DNA from: Escherichia coli
GTDB lineage: Bacteria > Pseudomonadota > Gammaproteobacteria > Enterobacterales > Enterobacteriaceae
Direction: 5' to 3' (one strand)
Assembly: GCF_965641715.1 (NCBI RefSeq)
Contig: NZ_OZ282453.1
Length of the DNA: 64,000 nucleotides
The position numbers were made by a program, and so were the translations under genes. This document shows, in pieces, positions 45,231 through 58,615 of the stretch. The first letter of the stretch is position 1; each line of letters begins with the position of its first letter. Under the pieces are notes generated by a model, which was not told the DNA's origin, did not search any database, and saw only the letters and a list, made by a program, of their open reading frames with translations.

Positions 45231-45421
45231 TTATACAAAGCGGCAGGTTATGGCCTTTTTTTATAATTTATGATTAAAAAAGCGATATAATACAGAGCCG
45301 CACAGCAGGATCGCTGCCTTGACAGTTCATATACATCAGCGTTAAAAATCCCGCAGTAGATGAAGTTGTGGTGGTGGATTAATGACCACTCTAAATGTTT
45401 AACCGGAAGAAGTCAGAGCTA

Positions 45422-46588
45422 ATGAAAATAACAATTTCAGGAACAGGTTATGTTGGTCTTTCAAATGGTATTCTGATTGCGCAAAACCACGAAGTGGTTG
45501 CACTGGATATCGTTCAGGCCAAAGTGGACATGCTTAACAAGAAGCAGTCACCGATTGTTGATAAGGAGATTGAAGAGTATCTGGCGACTAAAGATCTCAA
45601 TTTCCGCGCTACGACAGATAAGTATGACGCGTATAAAAATGCCGATTACGTTATTATTGCCACACCTACCGATTATGATCCGAAAACGAATTATTTTAAT
45701 ACCTCAAGCGTGGAAGCGGTCATTCGCGATGTGACAGAAATTAATCCCAACGCGGTAATGATTATAAAATCAACTATCCCTGTTGGTTTTACAGAGTCCA
45801 TTAAAGAACGTTTTGGTATTGAAAATGTGATCTTTTCGCCTGAGTTTTTGCGTGAAGGTAAAGCACTTTATGATAACTTACACCCATCACGCATTGTGAT
45901 TGGCGAGCAGTCTGAACGCGCTGAACGTTTTGCTGCGTTATTACAGGAAGGCGCCATTAAGCAAGACATACCAACATTGTTTACTGACTCAACCGAAGCT
46001 GAGGCGATTAAACTTTTTGCCAACACTTATCTGGCTATGCGTGTAGCGTATTTCAATGAACTTGATAGTTATGCTGAAAGCCTGGGGCTTAATTCACGCC
46101 AGATTATTGAGGGCGTATGCCTTGATCCGCGTATCGGTAATCACTACAACAACCCGTCATTCGGTTATGGCGGTTATTGTCTGCCGAAAGATACCAAGCA
46201 GTTACTGGCAAATTACCAGTCTGTGCCGAATAACCTGATCTCGGCAATTGTTGACGCCAACCGCACGCGCAAAGATTTTATTGCCGATTCTATCCTTGCA
46301 CGTAAACCGAAAGTTGTTGGCGTCTATCGTCTGATTATGAAGAGTGGTTCGGACAATTTCCGTGCTTCCTCGATTCAGGGTATTATGAAGCGAATCAAGG
46401 CGAAAGGTGTGCCAGTAATCGTTTATGAGCCAGCGATGAAAGAGGACGATTTTTTCCGTTCGCGCGTGGTACGTGATCTGGATGCGTTCAAACAAGAAGC
46501 TGATGTTATTATTTCTAACCGTATGTCTGCCGATCTGGCTGATGTAGCAGATAAGGTTTATACGCGCGACTTGTTTGGCAATGATTAA
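45422..46588 (+). CDS. ugd: UDP-glucose 6-dehydrogenase
   Basis: 388 aa from [16 protein letters not shown]; the ORF-track start at 45395 is rejected; the C-terminal 30 codons differ from the K-12-like duplicate at 47836-47937. Confidence 0.95.
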
Positions 46589-46653: not shown

Positions 46654-47658
46654 TCAAACTTTATAGAAGTTACGATACCATTCTACAAAGTTCTTTACCC
46701 CCTCTTTAACTGACGTTTCAGGTTTGAATCCTATTACGTCATACAGTGCTTTTGTATCAGCACTGGTTTCCAGTACATCACCGGGTTGGAGAGGCATCAT
46801 ATTTTTGTTGGCTTCAATACCCAGAGCCTCTTCTAAGGCATTGATATAGTCCATCAACTCCACAGGCGAACTATTACCAATGTTATAGACACGATATGGT
46901 GCTGAACTTGTTGCAGGAGAGCCTGTTTCAACAGCCCACTGTGGATCTTTTTCTGGAATAACATCCTGTAAGCGAATAATAGCTTCGGCAATATCATCAA
47001 TATAAGTAAAGTCACGCTTCATTTTGCCGAAGTTGTAAACATCAATGCTTTTACCTCCCAACATGGCTTTAGTGAATTTAAATAATGCCATATCCGGACG
47101 TCCCCATGGACCATAAACCGTAAAGAAACGCAGCCCTGTGGTCGGTAAGCCATACAAATGAGAATACGTATGGGCCATGAGTTCATTCGCTTTTTTAGTT
47201 GCTGCATAAAGCGAAACAGGATGATCTACAGAGTCATCTGTGGAGAAAGGCATCTTGCGGTTCATGCCATAAACAGAACTGGAGGAAGCGTAAAGTAGAT
47301 GCTGAACACTATTATGGCGACATCCTTCCAGTATGTTCAGGAATCCAATCAGGTTTGCATCTGCATATGCATTGGGATTTTCAAGGGAGTAACGTACACC
47401 GGCTTGCGCAGCGAGGTTTATTACGCGTTCGAACTGCTCGTCTGCAAACAGTGCCGCCATTTTCTCACGATCAGCCAGGTCAATTTTATAAAAACTGAAG
47501 TTGTCGTGCTTGAGTAAATCAAGTCGTGCTTGTTTGAGGTTGACATCGTAATAATCATTTAAGTTGTCAATGCCTACAACCTGATGACCAGCTGCAAGAA
47601 GCCGTTTACTTACATAGAAACCGATAAAGCCAGCAGCTCCCGTAACCAGAAATTTCAT
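46654..47658 (-). CDS. gla: UDP-glucuronate 4-epimerase (NAD-dependent SDR; Gla/WbnF/CapI-like)
   Basis: 334 aa; MKFLVTGAAGFIGFYVSKRLL...YASSSSVYG...YAATKK; closely resembles UDP-GlcA 4-epimerases from memory; minus strand, opposite to flanking ugd and wzz. Confidence 0.8.
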   Translation of the reverse strand: MKFLVTGAAGFIGFYVSKRLLAAGHQVVGIDNLNDYYDVNLKQARLDLLKHDNFSFYKIDLADREKMAALFADEQFERVINLAAQAGVRYSLENPNAYADANLIGFLNILEGCRHNSVQHLLYASSSSVYGMNRKMPFSTDDSVDHPVSLYAATKKANELMAHTYSHLYGLPTTGLRFFTVYGPWGRPDMALFKFTKAMLGGKSIDVYNFGKMKRDFTYIDDIAEAIIRLQDVIPEKDPQWAVETGSPATSSAPYRVYNIGNSSPVELMDYINALEEALGIEANKNMMPLQPGDVLETSADTKALYDVIGFKPETSVKEGVKNFVEWYRNFYKV

Positions 47659-47937: not shown

Positions 47938-48083
47938 CATCCTGTTATCAGGGCGATTTTCGCCCTGATTCTCTTATGTTCCATTTGTAATAATTCATTA
48001 TTTTTATCATTTATCCTATAGCATTCATGGCGATTATCGCTAAACTATGGCGACTTAAAATTATTTCGTCCGTTAGGGTAATG

Positions 48084-49064
48084 ATGAGAGTAGAAAATAA
48101 TAATGTTTCTGGGCAAAACCATGACCCGGAACAGATTGATTTGATTGATTTACTGGTGCAGTTGTGGCGTGGCAAGATGACAATTATCATCTCTGTCATT
48201 GTTGCTATTGCCCTGGCTATAGGGTATCTGGCCGTTGCCAAAGAAAAGTGGACTTCCACTGCTATCGTTACTCAACCTGATGTGGGGCAAATCGCTGGTT
48301 ATACCAACGCGATGAATGTGATTTACGGTCCGGCTGTACCGAAAGTCTCCGACATTCAGGCTTCACTTATCGGACGTTACAGCACTGCATTCTCAGCATT
48401 AGCGGAAACGCTGGATAACCAGGAAGAAGCAGAAAAGCTGACCATTGAGCCTACCGTTAAAAATCAGTCATTACCTTTAGCGGTGTCTTATGTTGGTGAA
48501 ACACCTGAAGGTGCTCAGAAGCAGCTGGCGAAGTATATCCAGCAAGTTGACGACCAGGTAAACGTAGAGCTGGAAAAAGACTTGAAAGACAACATCGCGC
48601 TGCGTATGAAAAACTTGCAGGACTCTTTAAGAACTCAGGAAGTAGTCGCGCAAGAGCAGAAAGATCTGCGTATCCGTCAGATTCAGGAAGCGTTGCAGTA
48701 TGCGAATCAGGCGCAGGTGACAAAACCGCAAATTCAACAGACTGGCGAAGATATCACGCAAGATACGTTGTTCCTTTTGGGGAGCGAAGCGCTGGAGTCG
48801 ATGATTAAGCACGAGGCGACCCGTCCGTTGGTGTTCTCACCAAACTACTATCAGACACGTCAAAACCTGCTGGATATCGAAAGCTTAAAAGTTGATGATC
48901 TTGATATTCATGCTTACCGCTATGTAATGAAACCGACGTTACCTATTCGTCGCGATAGCCCGAAAAAGGCAATTACCTTGATTCTGGCGGTGCTGCTGGG
49001 CGGCATGGTTGGCGCGGGGATTGTGCTGGGGCGTAATGCTCTGCGTAATTACAACGCGAAGTAA
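48084..49064 (+). CDS. wzzB: O-antigen chain-length determinant (polysaccharide co-polymerase 1)
   Basis: 326 aa from MRVENNNVSGQNHDPEQIDLIDLLVQLWRGK; TM1 near the N-terminus and TM2 near the C-terminus (ITLILAVLLGGMVGAGIVLG). Confidence 0.9.
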   Translation: MRVENNNVSGQNHDPEQIDLIDLLVQLWRGKMTIIISVIVAIALAIGYLAVAKEKWTSTAIVTQPDVGQIAGYTNAMNVIYGPAVPKVSDIQASLIGRYSTAFSALAETLDNQEEAEKLTIEPTVKNQSLPLAVSYVGETPEGAQKQLAKYIQQVDDQVNVELEKDLKDNIALRMKNLQDSLRTQEVVAQEQKDLRIRQIQEALQYANQAQVTKPQIQQTGEDITQDTLFLLGSEALESMIKHEATRPLVFSPNYYQTRQNLLDIESLKVDDLDIHAYRYVMKPTLPIRRDSPKKAITLILAVLLGGMVGAGIVLGRNALRNYNAK

Positions 49065-49160: not shown

Positions 49161-49765
49161 TCACTGATGCCGTTTACGCAGGTTCTCAATCACCGTCGTT
49201 AAATCCAGATCCTGATCCTGCAACAACACCAGCAGGTGATACATCAAATCAGATGCCTCGTTGGTCAGTTCAAAGCGGTCATGTACCGTCGCTGCCAGTG
49301 CGGTTTCCACGCCTTCTTCGCCCACTTTCTGCGCAATGCGTTTGGTGCCGCTGGCATACAGTTTGGCGGTGTAGGAGGTTTCCGGGTCGGCAGATTTACG
49401 TTCGGCGAGCAGTTGTTCCAGTTGATAAAGGAACAGCCACTGGTGAGCGGTGTCGCCGAAGCAGCTGCTGGTGCCTTTGTGGCAGGTTGGGCCGATGGGA
49501 TTCGCCAGTACCAGTAACGTGTCGTTGTCGCAGTCCGGGGCAATACTCACCACATTGAGGAAATTGCCCGACGTTTCGCCTTTGGTCCACAGTCGCTGTT
49601 TAGTGCGGGAGAAAAAGGTGACTTTGCCGCTTTCGATGGTTTTGTCCAGAGCTTCCGGGTTCATATAGCCCAGCATTAACACTTCACCGGATACCGCGTG
49701 TTGCACAATCACCGGCATCAGTCCGTCGGTTTTTTCCCAGTCCAGTTCGCGGCGTTGTTGTTCTG

Positions 49766-49772
<7 letters not shown>
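49161..49772 (-). CDS. hisI: Bifunctional phosphoribosyl-AMP cyclohydrolase / phosphoribosyl-ATP pyrophosphatase
   Basis: 203 aa; conserved HisIE sequence; last gene of the his operon. Confidence 0.95.
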
Positions 49773-55289
<5,517 letters not shown>

Positions 55290-55294
55290 GGCGA

Positions 55295-56194
55295 TCACTC
55301 CATCATCTTCTCAATCGGCAGGACCAGGATTGAACTGGCACCCAGCGCTTTCAGTTTTTCCATCGTTTCCCAGAACAGGGTTTCGCTGCTGACCATGTGC
55401 ATCGCTACGCGTTGTTGATCACCCGCCAGCGGCAGAATGGTTGGGCGTTCGGCACCTGGCAGCAGGGCGATGACTTCATCCAGACGTTCGGTCGGTGCGT
55501 GCATCATGATGTATTTTGATTCGCGCGCCTGGATCACACCCTGAATACGGGTCAGCAGTTTGTCGATCAGTTGCTGTTTGGATTCTTCCATTTCGCCATC
55601 GCGTTGTATCAGGCAGGCTTTCGAGCGATAGATAACTTCGACTTCGCGCAGGCCGTTTGCTTCCAGCGTGGCACCGGTGGAAACCAGATCGCAAATCGCA
55701 TCCGCCAGTCCGGCACGCGGGGCGACTTCAACAGAACCGTTCAGTAAGCAGGATTTAAAAGAGATGCCTTTCTGGTCGAGATAACGCTTGAGCAGGTGAG
55801 GATAAGAGGTGGCGATACGTTTACCGTTTAAGGAGAGTGGGCCATCCCAGGCTTCATCAACCGGCGTTGCCAGCGAAAGACGGCAGCCGCCGAAATCCAG
55901 ACGACGCAGGGTAAAGTAGCGTGGATCTTCACCCTGGGCGCGGCGGTTAAGCAGCTCTTCTTCCAGCACGTTTTCGCCGATAATCCCAAGATCTACCACG
56001 CCGTCCATTACCAGACCGGGAATGTCGTCGTCACGCACGCGCAGAATATCAATCGGCATGTTTTCTGCCATCGCGATCAGGCGCTGGGTGTGAAGATTGA
56101 TTTTAATGCCACAGCGCGCCAGCAATTCACGTGAGTCATCACTTAAACGGCCGGATTTCTGCATAGCTATGCGTAAACGAGTGTTGTCTGTCAT
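55295..56194 (-). CDS. hisG: ATP phosphoribosyltransferase
   Basis: 299 aa from [21 protein letters not shown]; the ORF-track start at 56233 would run into the attenuator terminator. Confidence 0.95.
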
Positions 56195-56233
56195 TTTCTT
56201 ATTCCTCTTTAAACCTGTCTGAACCGTTATCAA

Positions 56234-56339
56234 TCGCGCAATAAAAAAGCCCCCGGAAGGTGATCTTCCGGGGGCTTTCTCATGCGTTCATGCACCACTG
56301 GAAGATCTGAATGTCTTCCAGCACACATCGCCTGAAAGA
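56234..56339 (-). promoter_or_regulatory. his operon attenuator including rho-independent terminator
   Basis: On the minus strand: GC-rich hairpin gcccccggaagatcaccttccgggggc followed by a T-run (plus-strand 56243-56275), located between hisL and hisG. Confidence 0.85.
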
Positions 56340-56390
56340 CTAGTCAGGATGATGGTGATGATGGTGGTGTTTAAATTGAACGCGTGTCAT
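56340..56390 (-). CDS. hisL: his operon leader peptide (MTRVQFKHHHHHHHPD)
   Basis: Reverse complement of 56340-56390 reads atgacacgcgttcaatttaaacaccaccatcatcaccatcatcctgactag: 16 codons with seven consecutive His codons. Confidence 0.95.
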   Translation of the reverse strand: MTRVQFKHHHHHHHPD

Positions 56391-56615
56391 AAAAGTCTCT
56401 GTGAATGTTTATTCAACTGATGTCTTTTAACCTAAACCACTTTCACGTTAGAAAGCAAGGGCTTTTTTATATATTTTATGGCAATGGATTTGTTTAATGA
56501 ATGAGCGGGGAAAGGTGGGGGCCTGGAGTGACTACGTTAGAAAAGTAATCGTGAAAATATGTCTTTAAAACCCTCAAGAACATTGTGTTCTGTAACTAAA
56601 GTGGGCTTTGTTCCT

Positions 56616-56711
56616 GCCGGATGCGGCGTGAATGCCTTATCTGGTCTACAAATGTTGCCTAAATTCAATATATTGATGTTTTGTAGGACTGATAAGCGGA
56701 GCGCATCAGGC
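56616..56711. repeat. Degenerate REP pair (BIME-like) upstream of the his promoter region
   Basis: gccggatgcggcgtgaatgccttatctggtctac ... gtaggactgataagcggagcgcatcaggc. Confidence 0.5.
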
Positions 56712-56815
56712 AATGGTATATTTGCTAACAGTTTCGATTTCATTCATAGAATGAATTGTCAGTTTTGATACGCTAGCGTAGCCTTATAGATCTAAGGTGT
56801 ATCAGGAGATAACGG

Positions 56816-57640
56816 ATGAAAAAGGTCGCAATTGTCGGGTTAGGGTGGTTAGGCATGCCGCTGGCGATGTCACTTTCAGCGCGAGGCTGGCAAGTCACCG
56901 GGAGTAAAACCACACAAGATGGTGTCGAAGCGGCCCGAATGAGTGGCATTGATAGCTATCTGCTTCGCATGGAGCCTGAGTTAGTTTGCGATTCTGACGA
57001 TCTGGATGCCCTGATGGATGCCGACGCGCTGGTCATTACGCTTCCGGCACGTCGTAGCGGCCCCGGCGATGAGTTCTATTTACAAGCGGTACAAGAGTTA
57101 GTAGATAGCGCGCTGGCCCATCGTATTCCCCGCATTATTTTCACCAGCTCAACATCTGTCTATGGCGACGCGCAAGGCACGGTGAAAGAAACTACCCCGC
57201 GTAATCCGGTAACCAACAGTGGACGAGTATTAGAAGAACTCGAAGACTGGCTGCACAATTTACCCGGTACTTCGGTCGATATTCTGCGTCTTGCGGGCCT
57301 GGTCGGACCGGGGCGTCATCCCGGACGCTTCTTTGCCGGAAAAACTGCGCCTGATGGTGAACATGGTGTTAATTTAGTCCATTTAGAAGATGTTATTGGC
57401 GCTATCACTCTGTTGTTACAGGCACCTAAAGGCGGACACATCTATAATATATGTGCGCCAGCTCACCCTGCGCGTAATGTTTTCTATCCGCAGATGGCCC
57501 GTTTACTGGGGCTGGAACCTCCGCAGTTCAGAAATAGTCTGGACAGCGGCAAAGGTAAGATTATTGATGGCAGTCGGATTTGTAATGAACTGGGGTTTGA
57601 ATACCAGTATCCCGATCCGCTGGTAATGCCGCTGGAGTAA
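56816..57640 (+). CDS. yeeZ: NAD(P)-binding epimerase/dehydratase-family protein
   Basis: 274 aa; MKKVAIVGLGWLGMPLA Rossmann N-terminus; synteny with the his operon and yeeY. Confidence 0.85.
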   Translation: MKKVAIVGLGWLGMPLAMSLSARGWQVTGSKTTQDGVEAARMSGIDSYLLRMEPELVCDSDDLDALMDADALVITLPARRSGPGDEFYLQAVQELVDSALAHRIPRIIFTSSTSVYGDAQGTVKETTPRNPVTNSGRVLEELEDWLHNLPGTSVDILRLAGLVGPGRHPGRFFAGKTAPDGEHGVNLVHLEDVIGAITLLLQAPKGGHIYNICAPAHPARNVFYPQMARLLGLEPPQFRNSLDSGKGKIIDGSRICNELGFEYQYPDPLVMPLE

Positions 57641-57685
57641 ACGATCACGCCAGCAGGACGCCGCATGCACTGCAAGGGGGCGTGT

Positions 57686-58615
57686 ATGAAACCACTGCTG
57701 GATGTGTTGATGATCCTCGATGCCTTAGAAAAAGAAGGCAGTTTTGCGGCGGCGTCGGCCAAACTCTACAAGACGCCGTCCGCTCTGAGTTACACCGTTC
57801 ACAAGCTGGAAAGCGACCTTAATATTCAATTGCTTGATCGTAGCGGTCACCGCGCTAAATTCACCCGTACCGGAAAAATGTTATTAGAGAAGGGGCGGGA
57901 AGTTCTGCATACCGTGCGAGAACTGGAAAAGCAGGCGATCAAACTGCATGAAGGCTGGGAAAACGAGCTGGTGATTGGCGTGGACGACACGTTTCCTTTT
58001 TCTCTGCTTGCGCCACTGATTGAAGCTTTTTATCAACATCATAGCGTGACGCGCCTGAAGTTTATCAATGGCGTACTCGGTGGTTCCTGGGATGCCCTGA
58101 CTCAGGGGCGAGCGGATATTATTGTTGGCGCGATGCATGAGCCACCATCTTCCAGTGAGTTTGGTTTCTCGCGGTTGGGCGATCTGGAACAAGTCTTTGC
58201 GGTCGCGCCTCATCATCCGTTAGCCCAGGAAGAAGAGCCGTTAAACCGTCGTATCATTAAGCGATATCGGGCGATTGTGGTGGGGGACACTGCGCAGGCA
58301 GGCGCTTCTACGGCCTCACAACTTCTCGACGAACAAGAAGCCATTACCGTTTTCGATTTTAAAACCAAGCTGGAGCTGCAAATTAGCGGCCTCGGCTGCG
58401 GCTATTTACCCCGTTATCTGGCGCAACGTTTTCTCGATAGTGGCGCGTTAATCGAGAAGAAAGTGGTCGCCCAAACTCTCTTTGAACCCGTCTGGATTGG
58501 CTGGAACGAACAGACCGCAGGGCTTGCCAGCGGCTGGTGGCGGGATGAAATTTTAGCAAATAGTGCGATCGCCGGTGTTTATGCAAAATCTGATGACGGA
58601 AAATCAGCCATTTAA
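57686..58615 (+). CDS. yeeY: LysR-family transcriptional regulator
   Basis: 309 aa from MKPLLDVLMILDALEKEGSFAAASAKLYKTPSALSYTVHKLE (LysR HTH), C-terminal substrate-binding domain. Confidence 0.85.
   Translation: MKPLLDVLMILDALEKEGSFAAASAKLYKTPSALSYTVHKLESDLNIQLLDRSGHRAKFTRTGKMLLEKGREVLHTVRELEKQAIKLHEGWENELVIGVDDTFPFSLLAPLIEAFYQHHSVTRLKFINGVLGGSWDALTQGRADIIVGAMHEPPSSSEFGFSRLGDLEQVFAVAPHHPLAQEEEPLNRRIIKRYRAIVVGDTAQAGASTASQLLDEQEAITVFDFKTKLELQISGLGCGYLPRYLAQRFLDSGALIEKKVVAQTLFEPVWIGWNEQTAGLASGWWRDEILANSAIAGVYAKSDDGKSAI

Follow-up and report, generated by a model that had tools for sequence, protein, structure and literature searches.

Almost beyond doubt, the minus strand from 56390 to 56241 carries the hisL leader peptide gene and the his attenuator of Escherichia coli, an element that is already known and is present here in its wild-type sequence. 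With the same near-certainty, it serves as the control region of the hisLGDCBHAFI operon and works as a ribosome-mediated transcription attenuator. From about 1980 onwards, the his attenuator has counted as a textbook case of transcription attenuation. The window, that is, the whole stretch of E. coli DNA analysed, is 64,000 nucleotides long, and a sequence-only reading of it had marked 56234-56390 as an intact his leader peptide and attenuator. The coordinates proved accurate, one end being the hisL ATG and the other lying 7 nt beyond the end of the terminator stem. From about 56520 to 56235, a span that takes in promoter, leader, and terminator, the sequence is identical to that of E. coli K-12 MG1655, and RefSeq labels agree, which bears out the description of the element as intact. 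The features of the element and the genes around it are as follows.

56467-56462, minus strand: A-tract AAAAAG, preceding the -35 hexamer and invariant
56453-56458, minus strand: TTGCTT, presumed -35 hexamer of the his promoter (hisLp), 18 nt from the -10 hexamer
56429-56434, minus strand: -10 hexamer TAGGTT, a weak consensus match, followed by an A/T-rich discriminator, AAAAGAC
56421, minus strand: A, the putative +1, placed by published numbering
56402-56415, minus strand, +7 to +20: palindrome TGAATAAACATTCA, a candidate 5-bp RNA 5' hairpin or ARG-box-like DNA site
56340-56390, minus strand: hisL, with ATG at 56390-56388 and stop codon TAG at 56342-56340, translated directly
56349-56369, minus strand: seven regulatory His codons, CAC CAC CAT CAT CAC CAT CAT, part of segment A
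56331-56348, minus strand: his pause hairpin CCUGA-N8-UCAGG, the inner part of A:B, spanning the Pro-Asp-stop codons
56320, minus strand: presumed pause position U102, which fits G-10 Y-1 G+1; nt 102 is a U if +1 is 56421
56322-56340, minus strand: segment B, pairing with A (56335-56322) or, shifted, with C (56340-56332)
56313-56321, minus strand: segment C, CUGGAAGAC, pairing with D or B
56298-56307, minus strand: segment D, GAUCUUCCAG, pairing with C or E
56241-56283, minus strand: the attenuator, intrinsic terminator E:F, with E at 56283-56265, the loop at 56264-56260, and F at 56259-56241
55295-56194, minus strand: hisG, 299 aa, TIGR00070 at 193 bits against a cutoff of 75.75
49161-55289, minus strand: the his genes after hisG (D-C-B-H-A-F-IE), above NCBIfam cutoffs
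56816-57640, plus strand: yeeZ, the divergent upstream neighbour

The leader peptide gene can be read straight from the DNA. The minus-strand open reading frame 56390..56340 encodes MTRVQFKHHHHHHHPD followed by a stop, with 16 sense codons running ATG ACA CGC GTT CAA TTT AAA CAC CAC CAT CAT CAC CAT CAT CCT GAC TAG, and is annotated as WP_001364200.1 on identical DNA. The 16-codon leader with seven consecutive His codons (56369-56349) that the sequence-only reading had described on this strand is therefore present as stated. A sevenfold CAY run occurs only once in the 64-kb window, both strands included, and in none of 100 dinucleotide-preserving shuffles.

Between the leader reading frame and hisG, ending 47 nt upstream of the hisG ATG (56194), sits an intrinsic terminator with the sequence AUGAGAAAGCCCCCGGAAG-AUCAC-CUUCCGGGGGCUUUUUUAU (56283-56241, minus strand). 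Its E:F hairpin has a perfect 19-bp stem (56283-56265 with 56259-56241) of -32.2 kcal/mol (z = -6.9), and none of 200 shuffles was equally stable. Within this stem, a G+C-rich 14-bp core (56278-56265 with 56259-56246) closes a 5-nt AUCAC loop, and the 3' arm runs into six consecutive U residues at 56248-56243, in agreement with the GC-rich hairpin and U-run first noticed behind the leader from the letters alone. The K-12 attenuator is described as a 14-bp stem with a 5-nt loop and a U-run (PMC10989985). Taken as a whole, the 187-nt leader folds at -70.4 kcal/mol (z = -6.4). A simple scan for consensus promoters and terminators missed both the his promoter and the attenuator, the former because each hexamer matches the sigma-70 consensus at only three of six positions, and the latter because A-U and G-U pairs extend the stem through the U-run and leave too few T.

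Family assignment comes from a covariance-model scan of 54000-58500 with Rfam 15, in which His_leader (RF00514), whose gathering score is 49, was matched over the full length of its model, 1-126 of 126, by 56364-56241 of the minus strand, with 131.6 bits and E = 9.6e-23. All other Rfam matches in 54000-58500 were far under threshold. A plus-strand His_leader match at 56136-56283 (32.8 bits, below 49) is an artefact of the near-palindromic terminator read backwards and does not represent a second leader; likewise, sub-threshold RcsR1, NsiR1, MIR8001, and ctRNA matches on the terminator are hairpin look-alikes.

Identity with K-12 begins about 130 bp upstream of the hisL ATG, or about 100 bp upstream of +1. 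From promoter to hisG, alignment to K-12 reveals only two differences, both of which fall outside the functional stems.

56234: A for G, at +188, 7 nt beyond the end of the terminator stem
56198: G for C, 4 nt before the hisG ATG

Both variants recur elsewhere in E. coli, and strain 600468 matches the 276-nt query 56195-56470 at 100%. At least 80% of this query is present in 5422 of 5426 complete E. coli genomes, and a megablast search with 56150-56850 found matches in 5,423 of 5,426. The RefSeq labels lying under these matches read 'hisL: his operon leader peptide', 'His leader region', 'hisG', and 'yeeZ'. The window is accordingly E. coli chromosome. Experimental results obtained in K-12 carry over directly to this element, since the two share the same sequence.

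The promoter had been placed, as a candidate, at about 56395-56470 on the minus strand, and this range indeed holds the TTGCTT and TAGGTT hexamers, both conserved, as well as the A at 56421. Comparison of 54 Enterobacteriaceae sequences shows the A-tract and the TTGCT of the -35 element to be invariant and the -10 hexamer to be at least 90% conserved or invariant at all six positions, with a variable spacer between them. TTGCTT is taken here to be the his -35 hexamer on the basis of its 18-nt spacing and of the Salmonella and E. coli his promoter literature. The transcription start was deduced from the mutation names (U49G; G127A-U128C-G129A) and box positions given in PMC10989985; the A at 56421 is the only start that fits U49, G127-U128-G129, and the DnaA boxes at 46-56 and 126-134 of that study, and from this fit we infer that it is +1. 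With +1 at 56421, nt 180 lies at the end of the U-run, in line with the reported 180-nt leader. The -10 hexamer and discriminator are the ppGpp target at the his promoter, which is ppGpp-stimulated (PMC10989985), and the weak -10 hexamer and A/T-rich discriminator of the window fit such a promoter.

Downstream of the His codons, the pause hairpin (56348-56331) is followed by GCGAUGUGUGCU, which places a U at 56320, a G at position -10 (56329), and a G at position +1 (56319) of the pause. The exact pause nucleotide is presumably this U, U102. The hairpin and its context are identical to those of K-12 and invariant in all 56 leaders of the alignment described below. Pausing at hisL is hairpin-dependent and NusA-enhanced and follows a G-10 Y-1 G+1 consensus (PMC9291695). 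By transfer from experiments in K-12 and Salmonella, the polymerase of this strain would be expected to pause as well.

The K-12 element has been described as a 180-nt leader that encodes a 16-residue peptide with seven contiguous His codons and alternates between AB/CD/EF and BC/DE pairings (PMC10989985), and both sets of pairings can be traced in the window. The minimum-energy fold of the free leader contains A:B (56357-56344 with 56335-56322), C:D (56321-56314 with 56305-56298), and E:F. In the alternative arrangement, B:C joins GUCUUUCAG (56340-56332) to CUGGAAGAC (56321-56313), and the antiterminator D:E joins GAUCUUCC (56307-56300) to GGAAGAUC (56269-56262). The latter helix ties up the loop-proximal bases of the terminator 5' arm (56269-56265) together with the adjoining loop bases 56264-56262.

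These pairings suggest how the switch would operate. RNA polymerase would start at about 56421 and make a leader of about 180 nt, pausing at U102 (56320) behind the small hairpin until a ribosome begins to translate hisL. With His-tRNA(His) in plentiful supply, the ribosome would pass the seven His codons to reach the stop codon and cover A and B, allowing C:D to pair and leaving E free for F, such that E:F and the U-run would terminate transcription before hisG. At scarce charged tRNA(His), the ribosome would instead stall on the His codons and cover A only, permitting B:C and D:E to form; E would then be unable to make the terminator, and the polymerase would read through into hisG. If no ribosome is loaded, A:B, C:D, and E:F would all form, and transcription would terminate. 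The histidine response of this strain in vivo can be predicted by transfer from K-12 and Salmonella experiments, as can a rise in readthrough at limiting charged tRNA(His), which would follow from K-12 and Salmonella work on identical sequence (PMC10989985, PMC9291695).

RNA folding reproduces this scheme under defined assumptions. Folding of the complete leader to equilibrium was rejected as a test of the switch, since the terminator was kept (P = 1.00) under every ribosome mask; its persistence is explained by the 19-bp G+C-rich stem and reflects the kinetic nature of the decision. It was replaced by folding of the nascent RNA before F exists, extended to 56262 so that segment E is in and F absent, with an assumed ribosome mask of -15 to +12 from the A-site codon. 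In the nascent RNA, absence of a ribosome gives P(A:B) = 1.00, P(C:D) = 1.00, and P(D:E) = 0.00. Placing the A site on His codons 8-13 gives P(B:C) = 0.88-0.98 and P(D:E) = 0.91-0.98, and a ribosome at the stop codon gives P(C:D) = 0.98 and P(D:E) = 0.02. The switch is seen only in RNA folded before F exists and depends on the classical kinetic assumption and the assumed footprint; within this model, stalling on the His codons is the only state predicted to prevent termination, which is the three-state logic of the his attenuator. The alternative pairings that the sequence-only reading had proposed to recover by folding the leader were obtained from nascent RNA under the ribosome mask.

The conservation of the element was examined with a DNA-pattern scan for (CAY)7-CCN-GAY over 100,044 species genomes, which returned 120 loci. 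About 70 of these are enterobacterial his leaders with 87-100% identity. The other loci, about 50 in number (Frankia, Thermoplasmata, Pseudomonas, Tolumonas, and others), were discarded, since they lack the leader architecture and show no resemblance outside the His run. An alignment of 56 leaders was built from the window and 55 distinct leaders, a sample limited to Enterobacteriaceae by the HHHHHHHPD pattern. In this alignment, pairing amounts to 99.7% for the terminated structure and 99.5% for the antiterminated one, as compared to 40-53% when the partners are slid by 1-3 columns, a control that is biased because the structure was derived from one of the aligned sequences. Segments B and D and the pause region are 100% invariant, and C, E, and F are 97-99% identical, against 75-76% for the two hairpin loops and 65% for the stretch past the terminator. 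The helix stems are invariant or vary only by wobble changes, and across the 56 leaders no helix has any two-sided compensatory change, every shuffle equalling the observed value. Covariation consequently lends no independent statistical support, as the stems do not vary. The only variable base in segment C is A to G in 17 of the 56 leaders, opposite a U in both B:C and C:D, and both alternative helices are thereby preserved.

Constraint is also evident within the hisL reading frame. Of 56 distinct enterobacterial leaders, 42 share the same order of CAC and CAT codons through the His run, and the bases of the VQFK codons hardly change across the 56-leader alignment, with residues 2 and 3 varying (T/S/N/K/C and R/S, respectively). 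These strongly constrained synonymous positions suggest that the RNA or DNA, and not the peptide, is under selection. In one species the run is lengthened from seven His codons to ten.

Among related systems, the closest is the his attenuator of Salmonella enterica, which has the same leader peptide, MTRVQFKHHHHHHHPD, and the same segments A-F. Work on the Salmonella his operon gave rise to the A-F alternative-pairing model and to the description of the his pause. The leader of S. enterica subsp. arizonae is 93.9% identical over 181 nt, and Salmonella differs from the window in the 5' UTR, in the loops of the hairpins, past the terminator, and at one base of segment C (A to G, a wobble in both pairings). 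The trpL, thrL, leuL, pheL, and ilvL leaders share the mechanism, with a short leader reading frame, tandem regulatory codons, a pause hairpin, mutually exclusive pairings, and a U-run, but their regulatory codons and sequences are unlike those of hisL, and the Thr_leader model reached only 22.8 bits here, against a gathering score of 55. The his leader is built from three segment pairs (A-F), as compared to the four segments of trp.

Additional layers of control have been considered on the same element. According to one proposal, the leader acts as a DnaA-dependent riboswitch: DnaA would bind boxes in the leader RNA, blocking the ribosome before the His codons as well as D:E, and so favour termination. 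DnaA would then be an added layer on the attenuator, and attenuation would not be purely ribosome-driven. The boxes concerned are as follows.

+46 to +56: RNA DnaA boxes 1/2, AUUUAAACACC, unchanged in the window
+126 to +134: RNA DnaA box 3, GGUGCAUGA, unchanged in the window

In a dnaA A345S mutant, his transcription is raised about 4-fold, an effect that requires the hisL stem-loop region, and mutations in box 1/2 and box 3 are reported to have effects (PMC10989985). Besides being unchanged in the window, these box positions are conserved in Enterobacteriaceae, although their conservation is explained equally well by hisL coding, by pairing of 56383-56377 with 56290-56284, and by D-E spacing. 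Each box has two mismatches to the DnaA consensus, and the A at 56234 gives box 4 a third mismatch in the window, though box 4 was reported to be dispensable (PMC10989985). The authors of the proposal themselves call it only a 'possible' example, DnaA activity being without in vitro verification (PMC10989985). Such a role for DnaA appears possible but rather improbable, and ribosome-mediated attenuation is retained as the reading of the element.

Two further elements, neither of them part of the classical A-F model, hardly vary among Enterobacteriaceae. The first is the palindrome TGAATAAACATTCA in the 5' UTR, which is 98.2% paired in 56 Enterobacteriaceae, with four of five pairs invariant, and is surrounded by 5' UTR sequence that varies. 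One mismatch separates it from the ARG-box core TGAAT-W4-ATTCA; two ARG-box-like sites occur in the window against 0.35 expected, the match alone not being significant. The his enzymes are ArgR targets according to RegulonDB, as cited in PMC6345581. An alternative 5' pairing, 56418-56411 with 56381-56374, was rejected, being only 83% paired with two poorly conserved pairs. The second element is a predicted 7-bp long-range helix between GCGUUCA (56383-56377, hisL codons 3-5) and UGAACGC (56290-56284, in the D-E spacer), inside which A:B and C:D lie when the leader is untranslated. Pairing of this helix stands at 99.2% across the 56 leaders, with three positions that vary, all wobble-compatible, and no two-sided changes. 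A tRNA(His)-like fold of the leader was reportedly proposed in 1983, and a closing stem may already be implicit in it. The 7-bp helix may be what closes the tRNA(His)-like fold that PMC10989985 cites. Judged by conservation and motif match, the palindrome could conceivably be an ArgR operator just past the start, with the 7-bp helix acting as a 'lock' on the terminated fold when no ribosome is present, but this combined interpretation is doubtful and, if true, would at best refine a known system.

Still less probable is a function of the terminated 180-nt leader in trans, either as a small regulatory RNA or as a mimic of tRNA(His) that titrates tRNA-binding proteins. The terminated leader is an abundant, stable, and highly structured RNA (z = -6.4) whose A:B and C:D hairpins are closed into a multi-branched fold by the helix of 56383-56377 with 56290-56284, and a proposal that the leader resembles tRNA(His) is cited in PMC10989985. 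Against this, no Rfam small RNA family reaches threshold (RcsR1, 25.6 bits against 60; NsiR1, 21.9 against 39), a role in trans has no known target, and the cis-acting mechanism fully accounts for the conservation, making the idea very unlikely. Finally, the notion that the His-codon run and the hairpin are unrelated, with chance or a His-rich coding fragment beside an ordinary terminator producing the arrangement, is excluded: (CAY)7-CCNGAY does arise by chance or in unrelated genes of other phyla (about 50 of 120 genome matches), but such a juxtaposition is opposed by the full-length covariance-model match, the exact agreement with the K-12 element that has been characterised, the location immediately before an intact hisG, and the 0/100 shuffles.

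The attenuator is followed by a complete operon. The hisG ATG at 56194 lies 145 nt past the hisL stop, the same spacing as in K-12, which also has the same operon, and opens a series of eight intact genes, hisG-D-C-B-H-A-F-IE, each with a product that scores over the curated NCBIfam equivalog cutoff and a reading frame as long as that annotated in strain ET350. The orientation and 5' boundary assigned to the his operon from the leader thus stand, with hisG at 56194, his genes down to 49161 on the minus strand, and yeeZ divergent. The divergence of yeeZ means that there is no upstream reading into the leader. In K-12, the yefM-yoeB toxin-antitoxin pair occupies the interval between yeeZ and hisL, upstream of about -105. 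The window is without this pair and has, between yeeZ and the his promoter, an unannotated 212-bp segment (56527-56738) bearing a REP-like inverted repeat (56636-56652 / 56680-56696); K-12 homology resumes about 70 bp upstream of the -35 hexamer. About 1,196 of the 5,426 complete E. coli genomes carry the yefM-yoeB-less allele, among them O157:H7 and a BL21(DE3) derivative. Absence of the pair is a common E. coli allele and the only local peculiarity.

Beyond the his operon, positions 1-49100 look like the standard E. coli dcd-asmA/colanic acid (wza...wcaM)/galF/O-antigen (rmlBDAC...)/gnd/ugd/wzzB region that precedes his, as judged from the sizes and order of open reading frames, with family checks covering gnd, ugd, and wzzB. 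The last two bracket a 334-aa open reading frame of the NAD-dependent sugar epimerase/dehydratase family.

45395-46588: ugd, checked against NCBIfam
46654-47658, minus strand: the 334-aa open reading frame
48027-49064: wzzB, checked against NCBIfam

The best NCBIfam matches of the 334-aa frame are GalE and dTDP-glucose dehydratase, both well under cutoff, and strain ET350 has no gene at its position. It is probably part of the O-antigen serotype equipment of the strain.

The leader and attenuator raise no new biological question, and their value is as an annotation anchor only, one that fixes the strand, the region of transcription start, and the 5' boundary of the his operon in the window. 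They also show the main regulatory switch of the operon to be intact and wild type.
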